Shown: one piece after another, positions 3,596-16,636 of the stretch | How the letters are laid out: every line of letters starts with the position of its first letter | How positions within the stretch are numbered: the first letter of the stretch is position 1 | Virus record (IMG/VR): IMGVR_UViG_2737471827_000008 | Location: 1-21,396 of that record | Reading direction: 5' to 3' (one strand) | DNA length: 21,396 nt | Origin: a virus | Lineage: Duplodnaviria; Heunggongvirae; Uroviricota; Caudoviricetes | Notes under the pieces: model-generated | Databases searched by the model: none | Seen by the model: the letters and a program-made list of their open reading frames with translations, nothing else | Told to the model about the DNA's origin: nothing | Translations under genes and position numbers: made by a program

Positions 3596-4108
3596 TCAGT
3601 TTGCTCCCTGTAAACACCAGGCCATCTCCCGCGCACGGCGGTTATCCAGCCCCTGATTAAACACACCTTTTACATAAACCCAGCGCGGCAACTGTCGGCA
3701 CGCATCCGCCCAGCGCCGCTGATTGAGCAATTTCACCAGCGTGGAGCTGCAGGCATTGCCTGTCCCCACGTTGAAGGCAAACGACACCACCGAGTCATAC
3801 ACCTTTTGTGGCGGCTGTTGCTTCACACATCTTTCCAGCGCCCGCTCCACACGCAGCACGTTGGAGATAAGCCCTTCTGCTGCCTGTCGTTCCGTAATGG
3901 TTTTGCCGGGAATGACGCCCGACGTATTACCAATGCCGTCAGTCCATACACCCGCGCTGCACTGATACGGCTGCAGACGACAGCCTTCGTAATCGGCAAT
4001 CAGTTTCAGTCCCTCCACGGAGGTGTGAAGCTGCTGAAAACCCGGCAGCGTGGCAGCAATAGCCAGCACGGTCCCGACAAGGCAGCGTTTAACGATTGAT
4101 GGATTCAT
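3596..4108 (-). CDS. Endolysin, T4-lysozyme-like fold with an N-terminal SAR (signal-anchor-release) segment; phage 21 R / P1 Lyz type
   Basis: 170 aa; weakly hydrophobic Gly/Ala-rich N-terminus (VGTVLAIAATLPGF) followed by lysozyme motifs (YEGCRLQPYQCSAGVWTDGIGNT...FAFNVGTGN...RRW). Confidence 0.8.
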   Translation of the reverse strand: MNPSIVKRCLVGTVLAIAATLPGFQQLHTSVEGLKLIADYEGCRLQPYQCSAGVWTDGIGNTSGVIPGKTITERQAAEGLISNVLRVERALERCVKQQPPQKVYDSVVSFAFNVGTGNACSSTLVKLLNQRRWADACRQLPRWVYVKGVFNQGLDNRRAREMAWCLQGAN

Positions 4109-5070: not shown

Positions 5071-5721
5071 TCAGCGGCTGTCATTGCGCAGTCTGCGCTC
5101 CAGCTGCTGTTTGTCTTTTTTCACGCCACAGCGGGGATCGAGCTGTAACGCATGGTTGAGATGATTAAGGGCAGACGCCGGATTGCTTTCACTCAGGACC
5201 GCGCCAATCGCTTTATGCAGACGCGCCCGTGACTGGTCCGGCATATCCAGACCGTCTGTCAGCTCCAGCGTCTGCAGCAACAGATCGGCATCAAAGCCGG
5301 TGGTGGCAAGCATTGCGCTCTGCGCGGCGTCTGCCATTTCCTCTGCCAGCACGGTCTGCACGTTGCGGTTACCCAGCGGCATCACCCAGCCATGACGCAG
5401 GGCATGACGCCCGATCTCCAGCGCTCCGGCATAATCTCCGGCATCAATGCGCCACAGCATCACGTACATCAGCACGTCATCCTGTTGAGCGCCTCCGGCA
5501 GCCAGGACACCCTCTGCCCAGGCGGCGTACTTCGGCAGCAGCTCCACCTTGATTTCCGCTTTTTTGACCGTGGACTGAACGCCCTTGAGACGGCGGCGGT
5601 CTTCCGCCAGTTGCAGCAGCATCAGGTCATAGCCCGATGCGTGGCGAACACTGCCGCCCTCGCGGGCGGCCTGTTCAGCCTGAACGCGCAGGCGATGCTG
5701 CCGTGCGGGACTCAGGCTCAT
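5071..5721 (-). CDS. M: Terminase endonuclease (small) subunit (P2 gpM-like)
   Basis: 216 aa ORF in the gpM position between L and N; sequence resembles the gpM family as recalled. Confidence 0.8.
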   Translation of the reverse strand: MSLSPARQHRLRVQAEQAAREGGSVRHASGYDLMLLQLAEDRRRLKGVQSTVKKAEIKVELLPKYAAWAEGVLAAGGAQQDDVLMYVMLWRIDAGDYAGALEIGRHALRHGWVMPLGNRNVQTVLAEEMADAAQSAMLATTGFDADLLLQTLELTDGLDMPDQSRARLHKAIGAVLSESNPASALNHLNHALQLDPRCGVKKDKQQLERRLRNDSR

Positions 5722-5724
5722 GGA

Positions 5725-6783
5725 TTACGCTCCGGTTTCGGCTGCGGCGGCGCTGAAATCACCAATCTGGATGTTTTCCACCAGTGCGGCGCAGCGGTAG
5801 TCCTCAACCACATAGGCTTCATTAACGGATTCAAAGTTTTCAATCCGGTCACGTTTCGGGTTGTCGATAACCGAACGACGGCGGGTGTCTTCCTGCCAGT
5901 AGATGGACAGGTTATCCAGACGGGTGATCAGCAGCGCATTCGGCGGGAAGAACGGCGCACGCACGGCCTGCAGGCCACCCATGCGTTTCTGACTGATGAT
6001 CATATCGGCAGCCAGTTTTTCACTGTTTTCCTGCTCTTTGTTGACCAGCGGGAAATACTTGTCAGACAGCAGTTCACGACCGCAAATCACAACCAGATCG
6101 TCATCGTCCTGATAGACCACGTCGATAAGCTCGTTAACGGCATCCATCACCACGGCGTCCAGGTTGGCATATTCGCCACCTTTCCCGACTTTCACCGCAC
6201 CCGGTGTGGTTTCACCGCCCGTGGTGGTGCTGCCCATGACGTGATCCGGTGCATCCTCACGGATTTTCTGCAGCCAGCCTTTATTCACATCCTGCAGTAG
6301 CGGGTTTTCGCTACGGTTGGAGGTTTTCGCACGCTTCACGCCGTTAAAGCCGATCATGATGCGGTCCAGTGCCTGACGTTTCACGATGGCGTTACGGATA
6401 CGCACCTGGAAATCCTGAAACTTCGCCCACAGGTCCAGCTTCGCGTAGGTCAGCACGGTGTCAAAGTTGGTCTGTTCGCATTTGTATTCCACATCGACCA
6501 TCAGCGTCGGATCGACAGGTTCACGCTCTTTCGCGGTGGTGTCAGTGGTTCCGGCAATGGTGCTGCCAACACCCATCCCCAGCAGCTGACCGGACTGCTC
6601 AGTCACTGGCGTGACGTTAATCAGCGTCAGGAAAGCGGCGGACTGCTGGATCTGGTCTTCCAGCGTCTGCTGCACAGACGGCTCTACAGTGAACTTGCTG
6701 GACAGTTCTTCAACTGCCACACCGTTCAGACGCGCCAGCTGCTGCAGGTAAGCGTTAAAAGCAAAGCGGGTATTCTTCTTCAT
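5725..6783 (-). CDS. N: Major capsid protein (P2 gpN-like)
   Basis: 352 aa (P2 gpN about 357 aa) in conserved position; GGAG RBS upstream. Confidence 0.85.
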   Translation of the reverse strand: MKKNTRFAFNAYLQQLARLNGVAVEELSSKFTVEPSVQQTLEDQIQQSAAFLTLINVTPVTEQSGQLLGMGVGSTIAGTTDTTAKEREPVDPTLMVDVEYKCEQTNFDTVLTYAKLDLWAKFQDFQVRIRNAIVKRQALDRIMIGFNGVKRAKTSNRSENPLLQDVNKGWLQKIREDAPDHVMGSTTTGGETTPGAVKVGKGGEYANLDAVVMDAVNELIDVVYQDDDDLVVICGRELLSDKYFPLVNKEQENSEKLAADMIISQKRMGGLQAVRAPFFPPNALLITRLDNLSIYWQEDTRRRSVIDNPKRDRIENFESVNEAYVVEDYRCAALVENIQIGDFSAAAAETGA

Positions 6784-6799: not shown

Positions 6800-7633
6800 T
6801 CAGCAATTGGTCAGAGTGTCAGCGGGGGCGTTACCGCCTGTTGCACGCTGGCGGTAGTCCTGGCGGCTGTCTTCATGACTCAGCTTGTCCACCAGTTCGT
6901 TAAAGGCGGTTTGCTGTGCCTGCAGGGCAGTCTCCAGCTCAGACAGGCGTTCTTCCTGCTCAGACAGGGATTTTTCGGTGCGTGCGCTCAGGTTCTGCTG
7001 CTCAGTGGCGACCAGCTCCACGGCCTTATGCACATCAGAGAACCGGGCGTCATCGGACTGCTCTTTTTTGGTAAACAGCGCCGTGACGCGGGCAAACAGG
7101 GACGGTTTGTCGTCCTGGATTTCTTCCAGTTCGATCACCGTTTCCTCTGCAGCGGTAAAGAGATTGGCAGGATTCTGCTTGCGGTTTGCCAGCGGGTTAT
7201 GGGCTGCACTGGCGCTGAATGTCAGCATTTCCGTACCCAGACTGGCGGGATCATCAGTGGCAGCCAGGCCGACCAGGTAGGCTTTGCCCGTATCAGCAAA
7301 CTTCGGGCTGACTTCCATAGAGGTGAATAATTTCTGTCCTTTTTTCACCAGTTCCACCAGGGACTCCGTTGGCTCAACGTCGGCATACAGCGCCATCTTG
7401 CCTGCCAGCGGGCCTTCCGTGATTTCTTCAGCAAACAGCGCCGTCACCTTGCCGTAGCGGTTAAAGGTGCTGTCCGGCAGATAAGACTTGATGTGCTCAA
7501 GGTTAATCAGCGCGGTATACACCGCCGGGTTGTAGCTGGCTGCCATCTGTTCCAGCCATTCACGCTGGATTTCGCGTCCGTCGGTGGTGGCACCTTCCAC
7601 CCCGATGCGAAAACGCTTTGCTTTCACTGTCAT
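6800..7633 (-). CDS. O: Capsid scaffolding protein (P2 gpO-like)
   Basis: 277 aa with a charged, helical C-terminal half; first gene of the minus-strand late operon, divergent from P. Confidence 0.8.
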   Translation of the reverse strand: MTVKAKRFRIGVEGATTDGREIQREWLEQMAASYNPAVYTALINLEHIKSYLPDSTFNRYGKVTALFAEEITEGPLAGKMALYADVEPTESLVELVKKGQKLFTSMEVSPKFADTGKAYLVGLAATDDPASLGTEMLTFSASAAHNPLANRKQNPANLFTAAEETVIELEEIQDDKPSLFARVTALFTKKEQSDDARFSDVHKAVELVATEQQNLSARTEKSLSEQEERLSELETALQAQQTAFNELVDKLSHEDSRQDYRQRATGGNAPADTLTNC

Positions 7634-7775: not shown

Positions 7776-9542
7776 ATGAACACCACACTGACACCCGCAG
7801 ATCTCGATCCCCGTCGGCAGGCCATGCTGCTGTACTTTCAGGGATACCGCGTAGCCCGCATTGCTGAAATGCTGGGCGAGAAAGTTGCAACCGTTCACAG
7901 CTGGAAAAAACGCGACAAGTGGGGTGATTATGGGCCGCTGGATCAGATGCAGCTCACCACCGCCGCACGCTACTGCCAGCTCATCATGAAGGAGCACAAA
8001 GAAGGGAAAGATTTCAAAGAGATTGACCTGCTGGCGCGCCAGTCGGAACGCCACGCGCGGATCGGCAAGTTTAACAATGGCGGCAACGAAGCCGACTTAA
8101 ACCCTAACGTCGCCAACCGCAACAAAAGCCCGCGCCGTCAGCCGGAAAAGAACGTTTTCACCGATGAACAGATTGAGAAGCTGGAAGAAATTTTCCATTC
8201 CTCCATGTTCAACTACCAGCGCCACTGGTGGGAAGCCGGAAAAACCAACCGCATCCGCAACCTGCTGAAGTCACGCCAGATCGGCGCGACCTTTTACTTT
8301 GCCCGTGAAGCCCTGATTGACGCCCTGCTTACCGGACGTAACCAGATTTTCCTTTCCGCCAGTAAGGCACAGGCCCACGTCTTTAAACAGTACATCATCG
8401 ACTTCGCCAAAGAAGTGGAGGTGGAGCTGAAAGGCGATCCGATGGTGCTTCCCAACGGGGCCACGCTTTACTTCCTCGGCACCAATGCCCGCACTGCCCA
8501 GAGTTATCACGGCAACCTGTATCTGGATGAATATTTCTGGATACCAAAATTCCAGGAGCTGCGCAAAGTGGCTTCCGGTATGGCTATTCACAAAAAATGG
8601 CGACAAACCTATTTTTCCACGCCATCCAGCCTGACACACAGTGCTTATCCGTTCTGGTCCGGTGCGCTGTTCAACCGTGGGCGCAACAAAGCCGATAAGG
8701 TGGACATCGACCTGTCCCACAGCAATCTGGCCCCCGGCCTGCTGTGCGCAGACGGGCAATACCGCCAGATAGTCACCGTGGAAGATGCGGTGCGCGGCGG
8801 CTGTAACCTGTTCGACCTTGACCAGTTGCGCATGGAGTACAGCCCGGACGAATACCAGAACCTGCTGATGTGCGAGTTCGTGGACGATCTCGCGTCCGTG
8901 TTCCCGCTCAGCGAGCTGCAGGCGTGCATGGTGGACAGCTGGGAAGTCTGGACCGACTTTCATGCACTGGCTCTGCGCCCCTTTGGCTGGCGCGAAGTGT
9001 GGATCGGTTATGACCCGGCAAAAGGTACGCAAAACGGCGACAGCGCCGGATGCGTAGTGGTGGCACCGCCAGCCGTGCCGGGCGGTAAGTTCCGCATTCT
9101 TGAGCGTCACCAGTGGCGCGGGATGGACTTCCGCGCCCAGGCTGACGCCATCAAAAAACTGACCGAACAGTACAACGTGACATACATCGGCATCGACTCA
9201 ACTGGCGTCGGCCACGGGGTTTACGAGAACGTGAAAGCATTCTTTCCTGCCGTCCGGGAGTTTGTCTACAACCCCAACGTTAAAAACGCCCTGGTACTCA
9301 AGGCCTACGACATTATCAGTCACCGCCGCCTAGAATTTGACGCCGGACACACCGACATTGCGCAGTCATTCATGGCAATCCGTCGCGCCACCACCGCCAG
9401 CGGCAACCGCCCGACCTATGAAGCCAGCCGCAGCGAAGAAGCCAGCCATGCCGATCTGGCCTGGGCAACAATGCACGCACTCTTTAACGAACCGCTGCAG
9501 GGCGAGTCCGCCAATACCAGCAATATTGTGGAGATTTTTTGA
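7776..9542 (+). CDS. P: Terminase ATPase (large) subunit (P2 gpP-like)
   Basis: 588 aa; N-terminus MNTTLTPADLDPRRQA... resembles gpP as recalled; divergent from O, followed by Q. Confidence 0.9.
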   Translation: MNTTLTPADLDPRRQAMLLYFQGYRVARIAEMLGEKVATVHSWKKRDKWGDYGPLDQMQLTTAARYCQLIMKEHKEGKDFKEIDLLARQSERHARIGKFNNGGNEADLNPNVANRNKSPRRQPEKNVFTDEQIEKLEEIFHSSMFNYQRHWWEAGKTNRIRNLLKSRQIGATFYFAREALIDALLTGRNQIFLSASKAQAHVFKQYIIDFAKEVEVELKGDPMVLPNGATLYFLGTNARTAQSYHGNLYLDEYFWIPKFQELRKVASGMAIHKKWRQTYFSTPSSLTHSAYPFWSGALFNRGRNKADKVDIDLSHSNLAPGLLCADGQYRQIVTVEDAVRGGCNLFDLDQLRMEYSPDEYQNLLMCEFVDDLASVFPLSELQACMVDSWEVWTDFHALALRPFGWREVWIGYDPAKGTQNGDSAGCVVVAPPAVPGGKFRILERHQWRGMDFRAQADAIKKLTEQYNVTYIGIDSTGVGHGVYENVKAFFPAVREFVYNPNVKNALVLKAYDIISHRRLEFDAGHTDIAQSFMAIRRATTASGNRPTYEASRSEEASHADLAWATMHALFNEPLQGESANTSNIVEIF

Positions 9543-10579
9543 TGGGAAAGAGTAAGAAGAACCGCGCTGCGGCGACGAAACAGAGCCAGCTTAAAAGCCA
9601 GACTACAGCCGAAGCATTCAGCTTCGGTGATCCCATTCCAGTACTTGACCGCCGCGAACTGCTGGACTATGTGGAATGCGTACAGACAGATCGCTGGTAT
9701 GAGCCTCCTGTCAGCTTTGACGGACTGGCGCGCACCTTCCGCGCTGCTGTGCATCACAGTTCCCCGATTGCAGTAAAGTGCAACATTCTGACCAGTACCT
9801 ACATCCCTCACCCGCTGCTCAGCCAGCAGGCTTTTTCACGTTTTGTGCAGGACTATCTGGTATTTGGTAACGCCTACCTGGAGAAACGCACGAACCGCTT
9901 CGGTGAAGTTATCGCCCTTGAACCGGCCCTGGCAAAATACACCCGACGCGGGTTAGACCTGGATACCTACTGGTTTGTGCAATACGGTATGACAACACAG
10001 CCGTATCAGTTCACGAAAGGCAGCATCTTTCATCTGATGGAACCGGACATTAACCAGGAGATCTACGGCCTGCCCGGCTATCTTTCTGCCATTCCGTCAG
10101 CCCTGCTCAATGAGTCCGCCACGCTGTTCCGCCGTAAGTATTACATCAACGGCAGCCATGCAGGCTTCATCATGTACATGACCGACGCCGCGCAGAATCA
10201 GGAGGATGTGAACAATCTCCGCAACGCGATGAAAAGCGCCAAAGGTCCAGGCAACTTCCGCAACCTGTTTATGTACTCGCCTAACGGCAAAAAGGACGGC
10301 CTTCAGATCATCCCTTTGTCAGAAGTTGCGGCGAAGGATGAGTTTCTGAATATCAAAAATGTCAGCCGCGATGACATGATGGCAGCACATCGCGTTCCGC
10401 CACAGATGATGGGGATTATGCCAAATAATGTTGGGGGTTTTGGGGATGTGGAGAAGGCTAGTCTTGTATTTGTTCGCAATGAATTGATGCCACTACAGAA
10501 GCGACTACATGAACTAAACGAATGGGTGGGTGCAGAAGTAATACGTTTTGATGACTATGTTTTAGGTGTTCAGGAATAA
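9542..10579 (+). CDS. Q: Portal protein (P2 gpQ-like)
   Basis: About 345 aa; ATG at 9542 overlaps the P stop (TGATG). Confidence 0.85.
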   Translation: MGKSKKNRAAATKQSQLKSQTTAEAFSFGDPIPVLDRRELLDYVECVQTDRWYEPPVSFDGLARTFRAAVHHSSPIAVKCNILTSTYIPHPLLSQQAFSRFVQDYLVFGNAYLEKRTNRFGEVIALEPALAKYTRRGLDLDTYWFVQYGMTTQPYQFTKGSIFHLMEPDINQEIYGLPGYLSAIPSALLNESATLFRRKYYINGSHAGFIMYMTDAAQNQEDVNNLRNAMKSAKGPGNFRNLFMYSPNGKKDGLQIIPLSEVAAKDEFLNIKNVSRDDMMAAHRVPPQMMGIMPNNVGGFGDVEKASLVFVRNELMPLQKRLHELNEWVGAEVIRFDDYVLGVQE

Positions 10580-10582
10580 AAG

Positions 10583-10610
10583 AAAAGGCGCTAATCTCAG
10601 CGCCTTTTAT
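10583..10610. terminator. Bidirectional intrinsic terminator between convergent Q and the STAS-like gene
   Basis: aaaaGGCGCTaatctcAGCGCCtttt: 6-bp GC-rich stem flanked by A-run and T-run. Confidence 0.6.
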
Positions 10611-10625
10611 CTAACTAACCATATA

Positions 10626-10964
10626 TTAACAAACGGCGTATAAACCATCAAATCCAACGGAATGAACCTTTTTTGATGCTACTTCATTACTACGGCGTTG
10701 GATCACTTTTGCAATACTTTTTAAAATTGAAGGGGGTGCATTGCGAACCTTAACTTGACTCAAAACTTTGGTTACACCGAATTTCACTACCAAAACACCA
10801 AAGATTTCATCAGAGTATGATTCTGAAATTGAATAAACACCGCTCAGATCTAAATCTACGGTATACCCTTCTTTAATGAACCCTTCAATCTTGTGTCGTT
10901 GGGGGATAGCCTGATTGCGCGAAGCCAGGTCACCCTCGGGTAACTTGTATGCGATTTTGTTCAT
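10626..10964 (-). CDS. STAS-like (anti-sigma-antagonist fold, DUF4325-like) small protein; second gene of the accessory operon
   Basis: 112 aa containing VDLDLSGVYSISESYS, resembling the DLSGV/Ser-rich loop of RsbV/SpoIIAA-type STAS domains. ATG overlaps the stop of the upstream gene (TAATG); AGGAGG RBS embedded in the upstream gene's 3' end. Confidence 0.5.
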   Translation of the reverse strand: MNKIAYKLPEGDLASRNQAIPQRHKIEGFIKEGYTVDLDLSGVYSISESYSDEIFGVLVVKFGVTKVLSQVKVRNAPPSILKSIAKVIQRRSNEVASKKVHSVGFDGLYAVC

Positions 10965-11938
10965 TACTCTCCTCCTAACGCCCGCATTATTTCCATAAGC
11001 TGAGGGTCATTTTCTTCGCTATCTTTATCGACTGCCAGTTCATGAATCTTAAAACGGCAAGAAATTGCTACACCCGGCCATTCAGTACGTAATTCAGTAT
11101 AGCTCACTTCATCACCTATTGCTTCTAAGCATACATTTCCTGAAGCCAGTTGCAATTCCCCATTATATGTTTTTATCAATTTCATCAAGTGATACAACCC
11201 AAGCCCTTGATGATTATTATCTTTTTCTTTGACCGAAACCCCGTGGCCAAACACACTACCCCCAATAAAGTCCTGGGGAAGCTGCTGTGCCCAATCATCC
11301 TGCAAATCAGCATGCTTAGATGAATGTCCCTCTTGAATACACCATGCGATCGCATCCTGGTGAGTCTCAATTCCGGGTATACCAGCTCGCCGCAATTCTC
11401 GGAGAAATCCTAACCCACAGTCCGCCAAAGAAAATTCTAAATAGTGCTCTTTTTTTTGAGTGTGGGGTACAGCCGAACGTTGTGCAAAAGAAAAACCCGT
11501 TGATTTTCCATGCGACCAAACGTTATCGTGAAGCTCACCTATAACATGGGTTAGATCTGTAAGTCCCTTGGGACAATCTCTCGGATCACGATCAGGGAAT
11601 GTTAACTGCCTTACACAACTGTTAATACTACCAGTGGCAACGTCAACAGCTTCAACATTGGTTAATGCTGTAACCAAACTGTAATTTCTTCCAACATTTA
11701 CACGTTCCTGTTGATACTGATCCTCTCCCCATAAAGCACCATGTAAATTGATAGCTCGCATATAGCCAGGGCATGACAAAACACAGTTATCTTCGGTAAT
11801 TTTGTGATGATTCACGTAAGCTGCTAAGACAGTGATAAAACCAGGATGCCAATGATTGTTTGGCAATTGCAATTCATTAGTTTCCTTTTGATGAAACGCA
11901 GCGGTATGCACAATAGCGTCTTTTAATCCTAACCCCAT
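10964..11938 (-). CDS. GHKL-family (HATPase_c, RsbW/histidine-kinase-like) ATPase/kinase with an N-terminal domain of unknown function, about 120 aa
   Basis: 324 aa. Bergerat-fold motifs readable in translation: N-box IGELHDNVWSHG, G1 box LADCGLGF, G2 box HQGLGLYHL. AT-rich relative to flanking late genes. Confidence 0.6.
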   Translation of the reverse strand: MGLGLKDAIVHTAAFHQKETNELQLPNNHWHPGFITVLAAYVNHHKITEDNCVLSCPGYMRAINLHGALWGEDQYQQERVNVGRNYSLVTALTNVEAVDVATGSINSCVRQLTFPDRDPRDCPKGLTDLTHVIGELHDNVWSHGKSTGFSFAQRSAVPHTQKKEHYLEFSLADCGLGFLRELRRAGIPGIETHQDAIAWCIQEGHSSKHADLQDDWAQQLPQDFIGGSVFGHGVSVKEKDNNHQGLGLYHLMKLIKTYNGELQLASGNVCLEAIGDEVSYTELRTEWPGVAISCRFKIHELAVDKDSEENDPQLMEIMRALGGE

Positions 11939-11967
11939 GAACCGAACCTTTTTTATGCATTTTTCTT

Positions 11968-11996
11968 ATCATATAACTTAGGACTGATCAGCGCAA
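11968..11996 (-). promoter_or_regulatory. Candidate sigma70 promoter for the GHKL/STAS operon
   Basis: Minus strand TTGCGC-17 bp-TATGAT (forward 11991-11996 and 11968-11973), about 30 bp upstream of the 11938 ATG; spacer contains a GATC. Confidence 0.3.
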
Positions 11997-12056
11997 AGCT
12001 CCCGACACTATTGAATCATACTAAATTAAGGCCTATACCACACAGCACAGCGCGCG

Positions 12057-12075
12057 CTCGTATCCCCGCCACGCC
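12057..12075 (-). other. cos-like sequence (candidate cohesive-end site)
   Basis: Minus strand reads GGCGTGGCGGGGATACGAG. The first 13 nt match the 19-nt cohesive end of phage 186 as I recall it (GGCGTGGCGGGGAAAGCAT); flanked by a CATG-rich repeat region. Confidence 0.35.
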
Positions 12076-12548
12076 TGCCCGCTTTATGTAGTAGTTTTCA
12101 TGCACCTGCATGACATGAGCAAAAGCTCGCCAGTTCTGGCATGTCTTAGCCAAACCGATCCTCAAACGATCATGCGAACTCATGCAGCATAGACATGCAT
12201 GACATGAAAATCGGTCAAACCTTGAAACCAGTCATAAATATGAGCCAGCTTAATACACACTAAATAGCTGCGTCTAATACTGCTACACCTGCCGTTTACT
12301 GACATGTGGCATGTCGCGTAAGGACAACATACTGTAGGCCAGATACAGCAGGATCAGGCGAAGAAAACGGCCCCACGCCTTACCCAGCAAGGGCCAAGGG
12401 CTAACCGAAAGTGGAGCATTATTCCGCGCAGTTATTTAGTGTCAGCTCTTTTGAGCTAAAATCAAGTTTCAACATGAGGGTCTGTGCAGGCTTTCTCATC
12501 CCGCTAATTTATACAGCACACCTATATGGCTATGAGTTTGTCATGCCC

Positions 12549-12580
12549 GCTAATCCTGTTAGGATTAGCCTTGTTTTTTT
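12549..12580 (+). terminator. Perfect 9-bp inverted repeat with T-tract (intrinsic-terminator-like hairpin), 18 bp upstream of the lipoprotein ATG
   Basis: GCTAATCCT-gtt-AGGATTAGC followed by cttgttttttt. Confidence 0.35.
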
Positions 12581-12597
12581 ACGATTGGGATAGGGAT

Positions 12598-13404
12598 ATG
12601 AAGAAATTAACTGGCGTAATTGCTTTTGCTCTGCTGCTTACTGCTTGTGACAAACCGAAGATCGATGCATCAAGCGATCAGTCGATGAAAGAGTCCATTC
12701 AAAAAGTAAGAGAGTCCTTACCTGCAGATAAAAAAGCTCAGTTTGATGATGCAGTTAAAGTCGTTGCCTTTAGCCAAATCAACATGAGAGAGCTAATGCA
12801 GGCTGGAACGTCTTCTGGGGACGTCTACGAAACAAAAATTAAGTCAGCGCTGGAAGGTAAAACTGGTGATGAGGTTATAAATTACGCACAAACTATTCGC
12901 CTTGAGCGTGAGAAGAGAGAGAAAGAACAGGCTCTGCAAGAAATAAAAGAACTGGAAGCCAAACAAACCTCTGCAACACAGGCTGCGGAAAAAATGAAAG
13001 CCTTCAAGGTCGAACGTTCCCGTTTTTATTTCCAGAAAGAGGATTACGGCAATGATCAGCCAATTCTGGATATTAGCGTTGAAAACGGAACAGACAAAGC
13101 GGTTGCCAGAGTATTCTTCAAAGGAGTTATTGCCAGCCCAGGAAGAAGCGTCCCTTGGTTCTCTGACGTCTTCAACTATAAAATTTCTGGAGGTCTGGAA
13201 CCAGGTGAGAAAGCCAACTGGAAATTAGCCCCTAATAGATACTCTGATTGGGGAAAACTTAAAGTTCCGGCTGATGCTATATTTACCGTCACAGTCATTG
13301 GCCTTGAAGACGCAGATGGGAAATCGATCTATGGTGACGCCGAGTTTTCAGAACGCGATGCTGACAGACTGAATCAACTTAGAGATAAGTACCTTTCTAA
13401 ATAA
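12598..13404 (+). CDS. Lipoprotein of unknown function (accessory gene)
   Basis: Start placed at ATG 12598: MKKLTGVIAFALLLTA|CD is a classical lipoprotein signal peptide with Asp at +2 (inner-membrane retention rule). About 268 aa mature, charged, coiled-coil-like middle region. The ORF-track extension from 12526 runs through the terminator-like hairpin. Confidence 0.6.
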   Translation: MKKLTGVIAFALLLTACDKPKIDASSDQSMKESIQKVRESLPADKKAQFDDAVKVVAFSQINMRELMQAGTSSGDVYETKIKSALEGKTGDEVINYAQTIRLEREKREKEQALQEIKELEAKQTSATQAAEKMKAFKVERSRFYFQKEDYGNDQPILDISVENGTDKAVARVFFKGVIASPGRSVPWFSDVFNYKISGGLEPGEKANWKLAPNRYSDWGKLKVPADAIFTVTVIGLEDADGKSIYGDAEFSERDADRLNQLRDKYLSK

Positions 13405-13428
13405 TCAAAATTAAAGCTACTTCAGCAT

Positions 13429-13455
13429 AGTCCCTGAGAATATATATCAGGGACT
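13429..13455. repeat. 9-bp perfect inverted repeat between the two lipoprotein genes
   Basis: AGTCCCTGA-gaatatata-TCAGGGACT; no T-tract follows. Confidence 0.3.
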
Positions 13456-13512
13456 ACCAAATCACGGCAGATACCCCTTAGTTAAATAATGCTAAACGCT
13501 TAGAAAGAGACC

Positions 13513-13812
13513 ATGAAACGTATAACTTTCTCCTTTACGTTAGTAGCAATCATCATAGCCTTAGCTGGATGTGCTTTGCCAGATAAAGACGGCGACTTCG
13601 GAGCTTATGTTCATGCCTGTCAGCAATATGCATACGGAAAATCCTATGCCTTTGAGAATAGAGACTTCGCGTATAAGGTCTGTAAGGACGCGGCGAAACT
13701 GTGGAGTGAAGAAGTTCCTGGCTATATCATCAGGCAAATTCAACTACATCCTGAAATACCCAGCGAAGAAATTAAATATGCAGCCATGGCCGGCTCTTTG
13801 GGTAACAACTAA
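13513..13812 (+). CDS. Small lipoprotein of unknown function (accessory gene)
   Basis: 99 aa; signal peptide with lipobox LAG|C (MKRITFSFTLVAIIIALAGCA...); three further Cys in the mature part. Confidence 0.55.
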   Translation: MKRITFSFTLVAIIIALAGCALPDKDGDFGAYVHACQQYAYGKSYAFENRDFAYKVCKDAAKLWSEEVPGYIIRQIQLHPEIPSEEIKYAAMAGSLGNN

Positions 13813-13825
13813 ATCAACTTATGAG

Positions 13826-13849
13826 AAAGGGGCTTAATGCCCCTTTTCG
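13826..13849. terminator. Intrinsic terminator between convergent lipoprotein gene and the LexA-controlled small gene
   Basis: aaAGGGGCttaatGCCCCTtttc. Confidence 0.55.
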
Positions 13850-13879
13850 GTTCCCTTATCAAGTCCTAACGAAACAAGC

Positions 13880-14068
13880 TCAACTGATTACATCCATCGA
13901 CCTACTGTATTCATGGCTTCGAATTTTCGCCATCAACTCATCAGTCAATTCAGAAACCCACTGCAGAGCTAGCCCCTTCTCTTCATCACTACACTCACTA
14001 GCCGCTACAAGCTTAAGAAAAAAATCAATGCGCTGGAGCTTCAAAGACTCCAAAAAATAGTCCTGCAT
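13880..14068 (-). CDS. Small protein (62 aa) behind a LexA box; candidate SOS-inducible antirepressor (Tum-like position)
   Basis: ATG at 14068 (MQDYFLESLKLQ...) preceded by AGGAGG with 4-nt spacer. Immediately downstream of gene A, same strand, where phage 186 carries tum. The longer ORF-track version (start 14170) would include the promoter. Confidence 0.5.
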   Translation of the reverse strand: MQDYFLESLKLQRIDFFLKLVAASECSDEEKGLALQWVSELTDELMAKIRSHEYSRSMDVIS

Positions 14069-14109
14069 CTTTCCTCCTATAACACCATACGCAATACTGT
14101 ACATATAAC

Positions 14110-14152
14110 CACTGTTTATATTTACAGTATATAATAATCTTACTGATGTAAA
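14110..14152 (-). promoter_or_regulatory. LexA (SOS) box overlapping a candidate promoter
   Basis: caCTGTttatatttACAGta at 14110-14129 fits CTGT-N8-ACAG with an AT-rich spacer. On the minus strand a TTTACA (-35-like, 14147-14152) and TATACT (-10-like, 14126-14131) overlap the box. Confidence 0.55.
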
Positions 14153-14221
14153 ACGTTTTTTTACGTTCATCAGCCTGATATGCCTGGTATTATTAAGAGC
14201 ACGAATTGTTAACCCGCGTGA

Positions 14222-16636
14222 TTAATACAGGTTCCGCCACTTATCATCTTCCTGCAAACGCTGGTTCCGATAGAAGATACGCAGGCCTGCTCCTGACGGA
14301 ATACTGCCACCGCAAAGGAGCAAATCGACCTCTTTCTCGCTGCCATCAAATCCTCTGGACTTCAGTTCATAGACGAGCTGCTGACGCTGATACTCTGTAA
14401 TTCGCTGTTTGTAGTCTTTACGCCGTTTCGGTTTAACCAGGCGCAATCTTGCTGCCAGTTCCCGGCGCTCTTTTTTGCTCATACTGTGCAGGTAATCGTG
14501 CAATTCCTTGTCATCCATGCAGGTAATGTCCGTTCTGGTATCCCCATCTGCTGATTCATCTTTCTCATGTTGGTTCAAATTTTCAGCAAGGGGACAGTTA
14601 TTGCCACGAGTCCAAGGGGCGCAAGCGCCCTGGTCGGCTGCCGCCTCCTGAACATCAACGGCCTTACGAACCATTTTCCACTTCACGGCATGAGTGCAGA
14701 TCTTGCCCTCTGCAATAGGTGACCAGATGCCATAAATACGAATGCCGTGATCGCCATAGGCGGTCGGCTCTTCGTTGATTTCATAAGCGGTTCTGATGAG
14801 GTGATATTTGCGGGGAACCAGTACGCCGCCCTGCTTCATGATGTAGGTGGCAAAACAACCAGCATCAGCAGCAGCCAGGATGGCATCAAGGCGCGGGTTA
14901 TCCAGTACCGGCGCACCTGCTTTTTTGTCCCCCTGTTGCCTTGCCGCCTGACCAGCCAGCAATCGCAGTTCACGGTAAGCCTGACGCCCCGGAATGCCAA
15001 AGAAGCGGAATTGCTGAACACGATGCAGAGACGCCCAGGCATTAACGTATTCAGCATTATCACGCAGGGATTTCCCCGTTTCCTTGCTGATCTCGCCAGC
15101 CAGACCACGCCCGTCAATGTTCTTACTGATGTATTTCGCGATGTAGCTTGTTGGCGTACCTTTGCGCGGGTTAATCAACTCAGACTTAAAGCGCGGCCCA
15201 GTGTTATTGCCCAGTTCCTCGCGGTCTTCACGGATGGCAAACTTACGCAGTAATGCAGTGATGGCGCGGCGGTCTTTTTTGCGCATAAAACACAACAGGT
15301 GCCAGTGAACTGTACCGTCATGATGCGGCTCAGCCACCCGCACGCCATACCACCGCAATCCGGCTTTGTGCATCGCCTTACGAAATGCAGCAAACATGCC
15401 GACCAGATAATCACTGCTTTGTCTTACCGTCGCATTTGTCCAAGTTGGGTTGGGCCTGCCATTATTTAGCGTGGAATGGAAACGTGACGGACAGGTGATG
15501 GTGTAGAAAACGGCGCAGTCACCGCGCATTTCCGCGATAAGCTCCAGGCCTTTAACACAGGCCATCATCTCATTGCGGCGATGCGCAGGGTTGCTGCTGC
15601 TGGCGTTTACCACATCCTCCATGTCCAGCGTGTCGCCGTCTTCGTTCACCAGTTCATGAGAACGAAAAAACTCCAGCGACTTACGGCGCTGCTCACGTTT
15701 ATGCATCACGGCTTCATAGCTGACATAAGGAGATGCTTTTTTGCTAACCAGGCAGACAGCGCGCAACTGCTCTTCCCGCCATTCGCAACGCATCTTCCAT
15801 AATTTCCGATACCACCAGTCGGCGCACAACATACGCGCCAGCGAACCCGGAATGAGTTCATAGGGCACGGGTTTACGGCGGTTTCTTTTCCGGCGGAGTT
15901 GCTCAAACGCAGGAGGAATGACATCCAGACGCAGGGTTTCCGCCGCCACCCTTTCCCATGTCTTGCGGATTTCTTCTGGCTTAACGTCATCGGTGGCATA
16001 CAAATCGCCACAAGCTGCATCAAGACACATGCTCATATGCGCAGCAACAAGGGTGGACAGGCGTTTCACCTGATCCTGACTCATTTCAGGCAGGATCAGC
16101 AGGCCGTCCAGCCCTTCATGGCTTGCCATAAAGCGAAAAGAAGTGGATAGCTGACTCTCGCGTACATGCTCTAGTCGTTCCAGACATTGCTTAATCGTCT
16201 CACGTAAATAGCGGGAATAAGCCTTTGGCCTGCCCAGGCTGCTGAAATATTCAATACGTTGCATCAGCGGCTTGCTGATATGGGAAGGCTGGGCGTTGAC
16301 GTCAGTCAGAATGACCATGTCTGGATTAAAACGCTGCTGCTCATGCGCCATCTTTGCCCGGCTAATGAGCTTATCCTGCTCCATTTCGCGTTGGACAGGA
16401 TCACGGGATTCATTAAAGAAATAACGCTCCCAGACCTGATCACTCAGTGCCTCGCGGCGCAGTTGTTCCTGCTCGTTATCGGTAGCGTACAGAGTGATCA
16501 GGTTTGAAAGCGCAGAAACCGGCGCAACTTCCGCCGGGTCCAGATAAGGGTTAATGGCCTTTTTCGGGCTGTTCCATGAGAATGCTGCGGCGACCTCGTT
16601 AAAGCCGCTGCAGTTGTTCATATCAGCATGGCTCAT
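14222..16636 (-). CDS. A: Replication initiation endonuclease (P2 gpA-like rolling-circle initiator)
   Basis: 804 aa; HUH-like motif ([10 protein letters not shown]) and tyrosine-containing YIAKYISK region; stop/start overlap with upstream dam. Confidence 0.85.

Follow-up and report, generated by a model that had tools for sequence, protein, structure and literature searches.

Sequence comparison points to a P2/186-family cos site between two cargo modules of a P2-like prophage

Where the DNA of a P2-like prophage would be cut for packaging is the question raised by a 660-bp stretch (positions 11939-12597) of the IMG/VR record IMGVR_UViG_2737471827_000008, of which 21,396 nucleotides, termed the window here, were analysed. 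The original prediction held that the whole stretch, being non-coding and carrying a cos-like 19-mer amid a dense cluster of CATG-containing repeats, resembled a terminase recognition region. No credible open reading frame was found in 11939-12597, and the packaging assignment is supported by homology, by position, by conservation of short sequence boxes and by the presence of terminase genes. The region concerned is far smaller than proposed: 12050-12199, and only this part, is probably the cos site of a prophage of the P2/186 family (Fels-2/SEN8-type, Peduoviridae), a reading to which a probability of about 0.88 is assigned from sequence comparison.

The window is a P2-like (Peduoviridae) prophage, reversed relative to the standard P2 map, and its genes follow the P2-like order gpM, gpN, gpO, gpP, gpQ, cargo, cos, cargo, gpA. 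The putative cos lies between gpQ and gpA, as it does in P2, 186, Fels-2 and SEN8, and the cognate terminase genes gpM and gpP are carried on the same element. The features discussed below are collected in Table 1.

Table 1. Coordinates of genes and sequence elements in the window; distances are relative to the predicted nick.
Feature	Position	Strand	Remarks
Small terminase gpM	5071-5721	minus	phrog_74 terminase small subunit, E = 1.3e-88
Capsid	5725-6783	minus	
Scaffold	6800-7633	minus	
Large terminase gpP	7776-9542	plus	Pfam Terminase_6N, Terminase_6C, Terminase_5
Portal gpQ	9539-10579	plus	Pfam Phage_portal
Left cargo operon, cos to portal	10626-11938	minus	two genes
STAS-like DUF4325 protein	10626-10964	minus	left cargo operon
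324-aa protein	10964-11938	minus	left cargo operon
Left-arm spacer	11939-12049	minus	upstream region and 5'UTR of the 324-aa/STAS operon; cargo module, not cos
Whole conserved block, putative cos	12050-12199	minus	+26 to -124
CGCGCGC directly after the 19-mer	12050-12056	minus	left boundary of putative cos
Putative cosN-equivalent 19-nt cohesive end GGCGTGGCGGGGATACGAG	12057-12075	minus	identity to 186, P2 and SEN8 cos
Junction ATAAAGCGGGCA abutting the predicted nick	12076-12087	minus	near-invariant in conservation profile
Palindrome TCATGCAnnTGCATGA (= TCATGCAccTGCATGA)	12098-12113		box 4 plus inverted box
Box 4, TGCAT	12100-12104		-29; also in 186, P2 and P4
Inverted box, ATGCA	12107-12111		-36
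Short palindrome GCCAGaaCTGGC (GCCAGnnCTGGC)	12128-12141		about -65 to -54
Box 3, CGCAT	12172-12176	minus	-101; same CGCAT in all Fels-2-type relatives
Box 2, TGCAT	12182-12186	minus	-111
Box 1, TGCAT	12195-12199	minus	-124
IS630-family (ISEc33-like) MITE	12261-12438		174-bp core 12263-12436 between duplicated TA dinucleotides of a CTAG target
Perfect 9-bp inverted repeat GCTAATCCT-gtt-AGGATTAGC, then T7 run	12549-12580	plus	
Right cargo, DUF6694 lipoprotein	12598-13404	plus	at the position of the relatives' DinI/Tum-like gene
Replication protein gpA	14222-16636	minus	

Blastn comparison of 659 bp of the window with 50,697 phage records revealed a single matching part of 11939-12597, namely 12043-12199. 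It was shared with 82 to 90 or more records at E-values down to 4e-53 and identities of up to 91%, mostly P2-like phages of Klebsiella, Yersinia, Escherichia and Salmonella. When the minus strand was aligned with P2, 186 and SEN8, the ends of each being joined, and with Fels-2, 813R9, MLG42 and 500465-1, a single conserved block emerged; counted from the nick it spans about -125 to +26, and conservation is absent past +26. The block edges at +26 and -124 agreed exactly in two independent comparisons. The block was present in 1257 of 5426 complete Escherichia coli genomes (about 23%), and RefSeq E. coli genomes hold identical or 99% identical copies.

A 55-bp cos core shared by P2 and P4 is attributed to Ziermann & Calendar 1990 in PMC9122126, PMC9594776 and PMC5694545; the core used in this analysis, -29 to +26, was delineated from the P2/P4 comparison. 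Over these 55 positions, the window was identical to SEN8 at 53, to 186 at 43 and to P2 at 41, so that alignment with known cos regions, the check attached to the original prediction, succeeded. The core pattern TGCATTAAAAC...GCGGGC, 19-mer, GCGCGC is present in the window, and alignment to the cos regions of P2, 186 and P4 shows conservation of both the junction AAAGCGGGCA|GGCG and the GCGCGC that trails the 19-mer.

To place the window among a wider set, one genome per species was scanned with the pattern GGGCR-GGCGWGGCGGGGA-N7-GCGCGC, which returned at least 120 loci; the 120 cos regions compared comprise the 116 listed loci with enough flank together with P2, 186, SEN8 and the window itself. 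In the conservation profile of these 120 regions, among the matches listed, the window carries the consensus at every near-invariant core position. The GCGCGC is invariant among the 116 loci by construction, being within the search pattern, and is not evidence; independent support for the CGCGCGC at the left boundary comes from the context TGCGCGC in P2 and 186 and CGCGCGC in P4. The last five bases of the junction (GGGCR) likewise lie within the pattern, so that only its upstream bases count as independent evidence. The 186 counterpart of the junction is ATAAAGTGGGCA.

The 19-mer is a GC-rich 19-nt end homologous to the GGCG(A/T)GGCGGGGA... of P2/186-type cos. It is identical to the annotated cos of SEN8 at 19 of 19 positions, to that of 186 at 15 and to that of P2 (cohesive end GGCGAGGCGGGGAAAGCAC) at 14. 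The resemblance of its first 13 nt to the 186 cohesive end, noted in the original prediction, was borne out by the deposited sequence (GGCGTGGCGGGGAAAGCAT, NC_001317), and GGCGTGGCGGGGA occurs once within the window. Taken alone, the 13-mer match is not significant, because a match with two or fewer mismatches arose in 37 of 100 shuffles. At least 12 overhang variants were present among the 120 cos regions, and the variant of the window was found in 14 of them (both counts among the matches listed). The SEN8 record ends at the base preceding the 19-mer and opens with the identical 19-mer, labelled 'putative cos site', which is an annotation and not an end mapping. Among the deposited phages, SEN8 alone has record ends coinciding with the nick; the matches to Cartapus and Midge reach the record end, yet do not stop at the nick. 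A separate observation concerns Escherichia phage 500465-1 (NC_049342), in which a 1-nt deletion at about 3620-3640 gives a 19-mer of the form GGCGT-GCGGGGATACGAG. Either a sequencing error or a defective cos would account for it; in the same record the portal and the terminase are each split and IS insertions are present.

The arm of the block on the gpA side carries TGCAT boxes that are locked in position relative to the nick, a feature derived in this analysis. In an ungapped position count over the 120 cos regions (among the matches listed), TGCAT stood at exactly -124 in 72, at -111 in 90, at -101 in 79 and at -29 in 113; the -124 box was found within a few bases of that position in 97, and the inverted ATGCA at -36 in 74. 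P2, 186 and P4 have boxes at matching distances, except that box 1 of P2 starts at -123. PMC9122126 and PMC9594776 describe P4 and P2 as generally without homology outside the cos region. Since the two share essentially only cos, conservation of the boxes in P4 argues for a packaging role, and the gpA-side array likely forms the recognition region of the small terminase gpM. What recurs, at fixed positions, is the unit TGCAT(G/T)A and not the 9- to 11-mers to which the original prediction had drawn attention.

Two features count against the cos reading: box 3 is CGCAT and not TGCAT, and the palindrome at -65, longer in relatives (GCCCGCCAGaaCTGGCGGGC), is weakened here. The CCAGnnCTGG core of this palindrome is common among the 120 loci (among the matches listed) and absent from P2. 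The palindrome was also considered as a covarying hairpin; since it exceeded shuffles by a modest margin only and conservation of CCAGnnCTGG is at the level of sequence, no structure is claimed.

That the block is a true cos homologue surviving as a relic, in a defective prophage whose site is no longer cut or packaged, is improbable. Such a history would agree with the degraded -65 palindrome, with the insertion of a MITE 186 bp from the nick and with the fact that the window holds only part of a prophage, and the deletion in the 19-mer of 500465-1 indicates that such defects, or sequencing errors, occur. It is opposed by the agreement of the window with the consensus at every near-invariant core position (among the matches listed) and by the full length of the terminase, portal, capsid, scaffold and gpA reading frames; the MITE, moreover, lies outside the conserved block.

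The proposed cluster of CATG repeats holds for part of the stretch. Nine CATG tetranucleotides fall within 12076-12207, a density of 68/kb against 4.9/kb window-wide, and nine were reached in none of 1000 dinucleotide shuffles. The remaining 12208-12597 contains four, a number reached in 87 of 1000 shuffles and therefore no enrichment, and 11939-12049 contains none. Enrichment is thus limited to the 132 bp that adjoin the nick towards gpA. As a palindromic tetranucleotide, CATG resembles the usual targets of restriction-modification systems, and the boxes are flanked by two cargo modules, so the boxes might be operators or methylation targets of cargo genes that lie near cos by coincidence. 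This is very improbable: the boxes are locked to the nick while the neighbouring genes differ completely among P2, 186, P4, Fels-2, SEN8 and the window, and exchange of either cargo module leaves them with cos.

All five short repeats listed in the original prediction exist, with the coordinates of the second TGGCATGTC copy and of the palindrome off by one; their membership of a single cos array fared less well. The 11-mer GCATGACATGA at 12108-12118 and 12197-12207 extends to a 20-nt pair of 85% identity, and its copies overlap the inverted box and box 1 with a few window-specific bases added. The 9-mer TGGCATGTC at 12137-12145 and 12307-12315 is a pair at chance level (a simple calculation gives an expectation of about 0.8 for 660 bp), one copy being a window-specific variant within the -65 palindrome and the other lying inside the MITE, and the inverted repeat GACATgtggcATGTC at 12301-12315 is internal to the MITE; neither is part of cos. 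The notion that the entire resemblance is accidental, a GC-rich 13-mer match among random short repeats in an AT-rich spacer, could appeal to the shuffle result for the 13-mer and to this TGGCATGTC pair but is refuted by 150 bp of homology to known cos regions at the E-values given above, which leaves it a negligible probability.

With the block read as a cos site, the following sequence of events may be envisaged. The small terminase gpM would recognise the gpA-side arm through the boxes at -124, -111 and -101, the -36/-29 pair and the GCCAGnnCTGGC palindrome, and would position the large terminase gpP. We infer that gpP would then make two nicks 19 nt apart, at 12076|12075 on the minus strand and at 12056|12057 on the plus strand, leaving a packaged linear genome with 19-nt 5' overhangs consisting of GGCGTGGCGGGGATACGAG and its complement. 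Were the nicks at cos, virion DNA would begin on the left, at its portal end, with the 324-aa/STAS operon and would finish on the right with the DUF6694 module. The two accessory modules would thereby occupy opposite extremities of the packaged molecule, within the gpA-gpQ hotspot already published.

The boundaries of the block also bear on how the window was assembled. The whole 10580-13500 stretch was found in none of 5426 complete E. coli genomes. In E. coli carrying the 324-aa/STAS module the match covers 10580-12199, and in those carrying the DUF6694 module it covers 12050-13500; the two sets of matches overlap exactly in the cos block, with breakpoints at 12050 and 12199, and the two modules did not co-occur in any of the 5426 genomes. 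Sequence between 11939 and 12049 goes with the left cargo module and sequence between 12200 and 12597 with the right, and the window looks like a recombinant joined within cos. A broader proposal is that the TGCAT boxes constitute a gpM recognition code of P2/186/Fels-2-type phages that was copied by P4, and that the block serves as a homology anchor, or as an entry point for recombination after terminase cutting, through which cargo is exchanged independently on either side. The separate occurrence of the modules in E. coli, with breakpoints exactly at the block edges, is compatible with the recombination-anchor part; the proposal as a whole is tentative and rather unlikely.

The left cargo operon does lie between the portal gene and cos, as the original prediction had it, and the naming of its products as GHKL and STAS proteins stands for the second: the DUF4325 protein is STAS-like, while the GHKL assignment of the 324-aa protein derives from strings resembling the N, G1 and G2 boxes (ELHDNVWSH, DCGLGF, QGLGLY) read by eye. 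Searches of the 324-aa protein against Pfam, NCBIfam and PDB sequences returned nothing, and a PADLOC match was marginal. The protein belongs to phrog_3364. A second family, phrog_5816 (441 positions), matches part of the 324-aa protein weakly and, at its C-terminus, the STAS-like protein, which points to the existence of fused versions. The spacer between this operon and the block is 100% identical in E. coli EEC_W5, whose cargo is the same. Other phages have unrelated sequence at this place. In the window the spacer contains a candidate promoter, TTGCGC-17-TATGAT, that was read by eye and missed by the scan. Between the portal and STAS genes, at 10583-10608, an 11-bp hairpin with flanking A and T runs was observed, which is probably a bidirectional terminator for two convergent transcription units. 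An Rfam search of 10500-14300 at E <= 1 returned only weak, sub-threshold STnc40 matches on both strands at this portal terminator.

Additional genes in this interval are common among relatives: Fels-2, SEN8, 813R9 and 500465-1 also carry cargo between cos and gpQ. The distance from cos to the portal gene was 150-225 bp (P2/186-like) in 23 and 0.57-4 kb in 20 of 43 measurable genome loci, a sample biased by the 8-kb locus chunks used, and is 1477 bp in the window. PMC5694545 cites Dodd & Egan 1996 and Nakayama 1999 for the interval between cosL and the gpQ homologue as a hotspot of extra genes, and PMC9122126 and PMC13586616 already present the whole cos-proximal gpA-gpQ locus as a defence hotspot.

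On the other side of cos, a DinI/Tum-like gene lies between gpA and cos in 186, Fels-2, SEN8, 813R9, MLG42 and E. coli EEC_W5. In the window, 12598-14221 is without such a gene and instead holds the oppositely oriented DUF6694 lipoprotein together with a 99-aa protein (phrog_7666). The region 12439-12597 is the upstream region of the lipoprotein gene. The inverted repeat and T7 run within it end 17 nt upstream of the lipoprotein ATG and are nearly invariant in Citrobacter sp. Cu233, in which the sequence further upstream is much less conserved (overall about 75%). The repeat overlaps a promoter-like TTGTCA-16-TAGGAT (12538-12565), and small E. coli plasmids with the lipoprotein gene share its upstream sequence from roughly this repeat onward. 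It is a regulatory element of the lipoprotein gene, not of cos, and could be an operator or an attenuator/terminator.

The right cargo module further contains a MITE. Its ends match those of ISEc33 in the same orientation over 33 nt on the left (94%) and 20 nt on the right (95%), its terminal inverted repeats are 40 nt long and imperfect, and its 174-bp core is without a transposase gene, holding short ORF fragments only. CTAG is the preferred target of IS630-family elements. The window has the arrangement C-TA[element]TA-G expected of a TA target-site duplication, and an uninterrupted CTAG, an empty site, is found at the homologous position of a related module in Citrobacter sp. Cu233. Among complete E. 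coli genomes no empty site was found, the MITE being present in 20 of the 20 that carry the module. In five other aligned copies, homology begins at CTA, and in three it ends at TAG; of the remaining two, one is truncated and the other diverges at its right end. Relatives of the element occur at 175 places in 169 E. coli records, as well as in plasmids and in Shigella phage SfII. They were found in 165 of 5426 E. coli genomes, with a median of one copy per carrying genome, and the copies are diverged (69-87% identity) and located at unrelated places.

Before these ends were matched, the strong fold of 12257-12448 (z = -4.0) and its dispersed homologues had led to its consideration as a structured RNA. 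That reading was dropped on account of the ISEc33 ends and the empty CTAG site; the two strands fold equally well (z = -4.0 and -3.6), a symmetry that terminal inverted repeats would produce, and no Rfam match was obtained for this segment at E <= 1. An omega-RNA or IS605 end, considered in view of a TnpB gene upstream of one copy, was also discarded, as other copies have no TnpB nearby. The copy in question, on the E. coli plasmid pEC85-4-128k (1915-3673), has an InsQ/TnpB gene about 420 bp upstream of it, a proximity that is probably coincidental; it adjoins an integrase fragment, and the plasmid also carries phage-type genes, among them those for a baseplate protein and a Dam-family methyltransferase. 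A recent survey of P2/P4 defence hotspots (PMC13586616) reports transposable elements to be almost absent from them, by which measure the MITE of the window is a small exception.

The main value of these results is one of annotation, in that the ends of the packaged genome can be placed provisionally from sequence; no new question is opened. The 150-bp block delimited here would constitute a portable packaging signal that might be used in cosmids or in predicting the satellites that this phage could mobilise.

Comparison with known systems places the site as follows. The cosQ-cosN-cosB arrangement of lambda offers a functional analogy only, a nicking site accompanied by short repeated elements on one side, those of lambda being likely recognition sites of the small terminase. 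There is no sequence similarity, and the lambda overhang is 12 nt, as against 19 nt in P2-type phages.

P2 and P4 have the same architecture as the window and the same box positions, apart from the shift of box 1 in P2. P2 differs in reading GGCGA where the window has GGCGT, in being without the inverted -36 box and the -65 palindrome, and in carrying its cargo (old, tin) on the gpA side only. According to PMC9594776, flanks beyond the 55-bp core strongly improved P2-mediated transduction of cosmids, the signals compared being derived from P4, an effect consistent with the 150-bp extent of the block in the window. Phage 186 (NC_001317) shares the first 13 nt of the overhang, the junction ATAAAG(C/T)GGGCA, the palindrome TCATGCAnnTGCAT and the boxes at -124, -111, -101 and -29. 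It differs in the 3' third of the overhang, which is AAGCAT rather than TACGAG, and in having the portal gene W 176 bp from cos with no intervening cargo.

The closest likeness is to the Fels-2-type set, consisting of Salmonella phages SEN8 (NC_047753) and Fels-2 (NC_010463), Escherichia phage vB_EcoM-813R9 and Yersinia phage vB_YpM_MLG42. These have the identical 19-mer, a 150-bp block that is 87-91% identical, CGCAT at box 3 and one or more cargo genes between cos and portal. The window departs from them in its weaker -65 palindrome and in the cargo on both sides, with the DUF6694 lipoprotein module and the MITE present and no DinI/Tum-like gene. The putative site is a cos of known kind, essentially a variant that has already been sequenced; the box map and the MITE add modestly to it.
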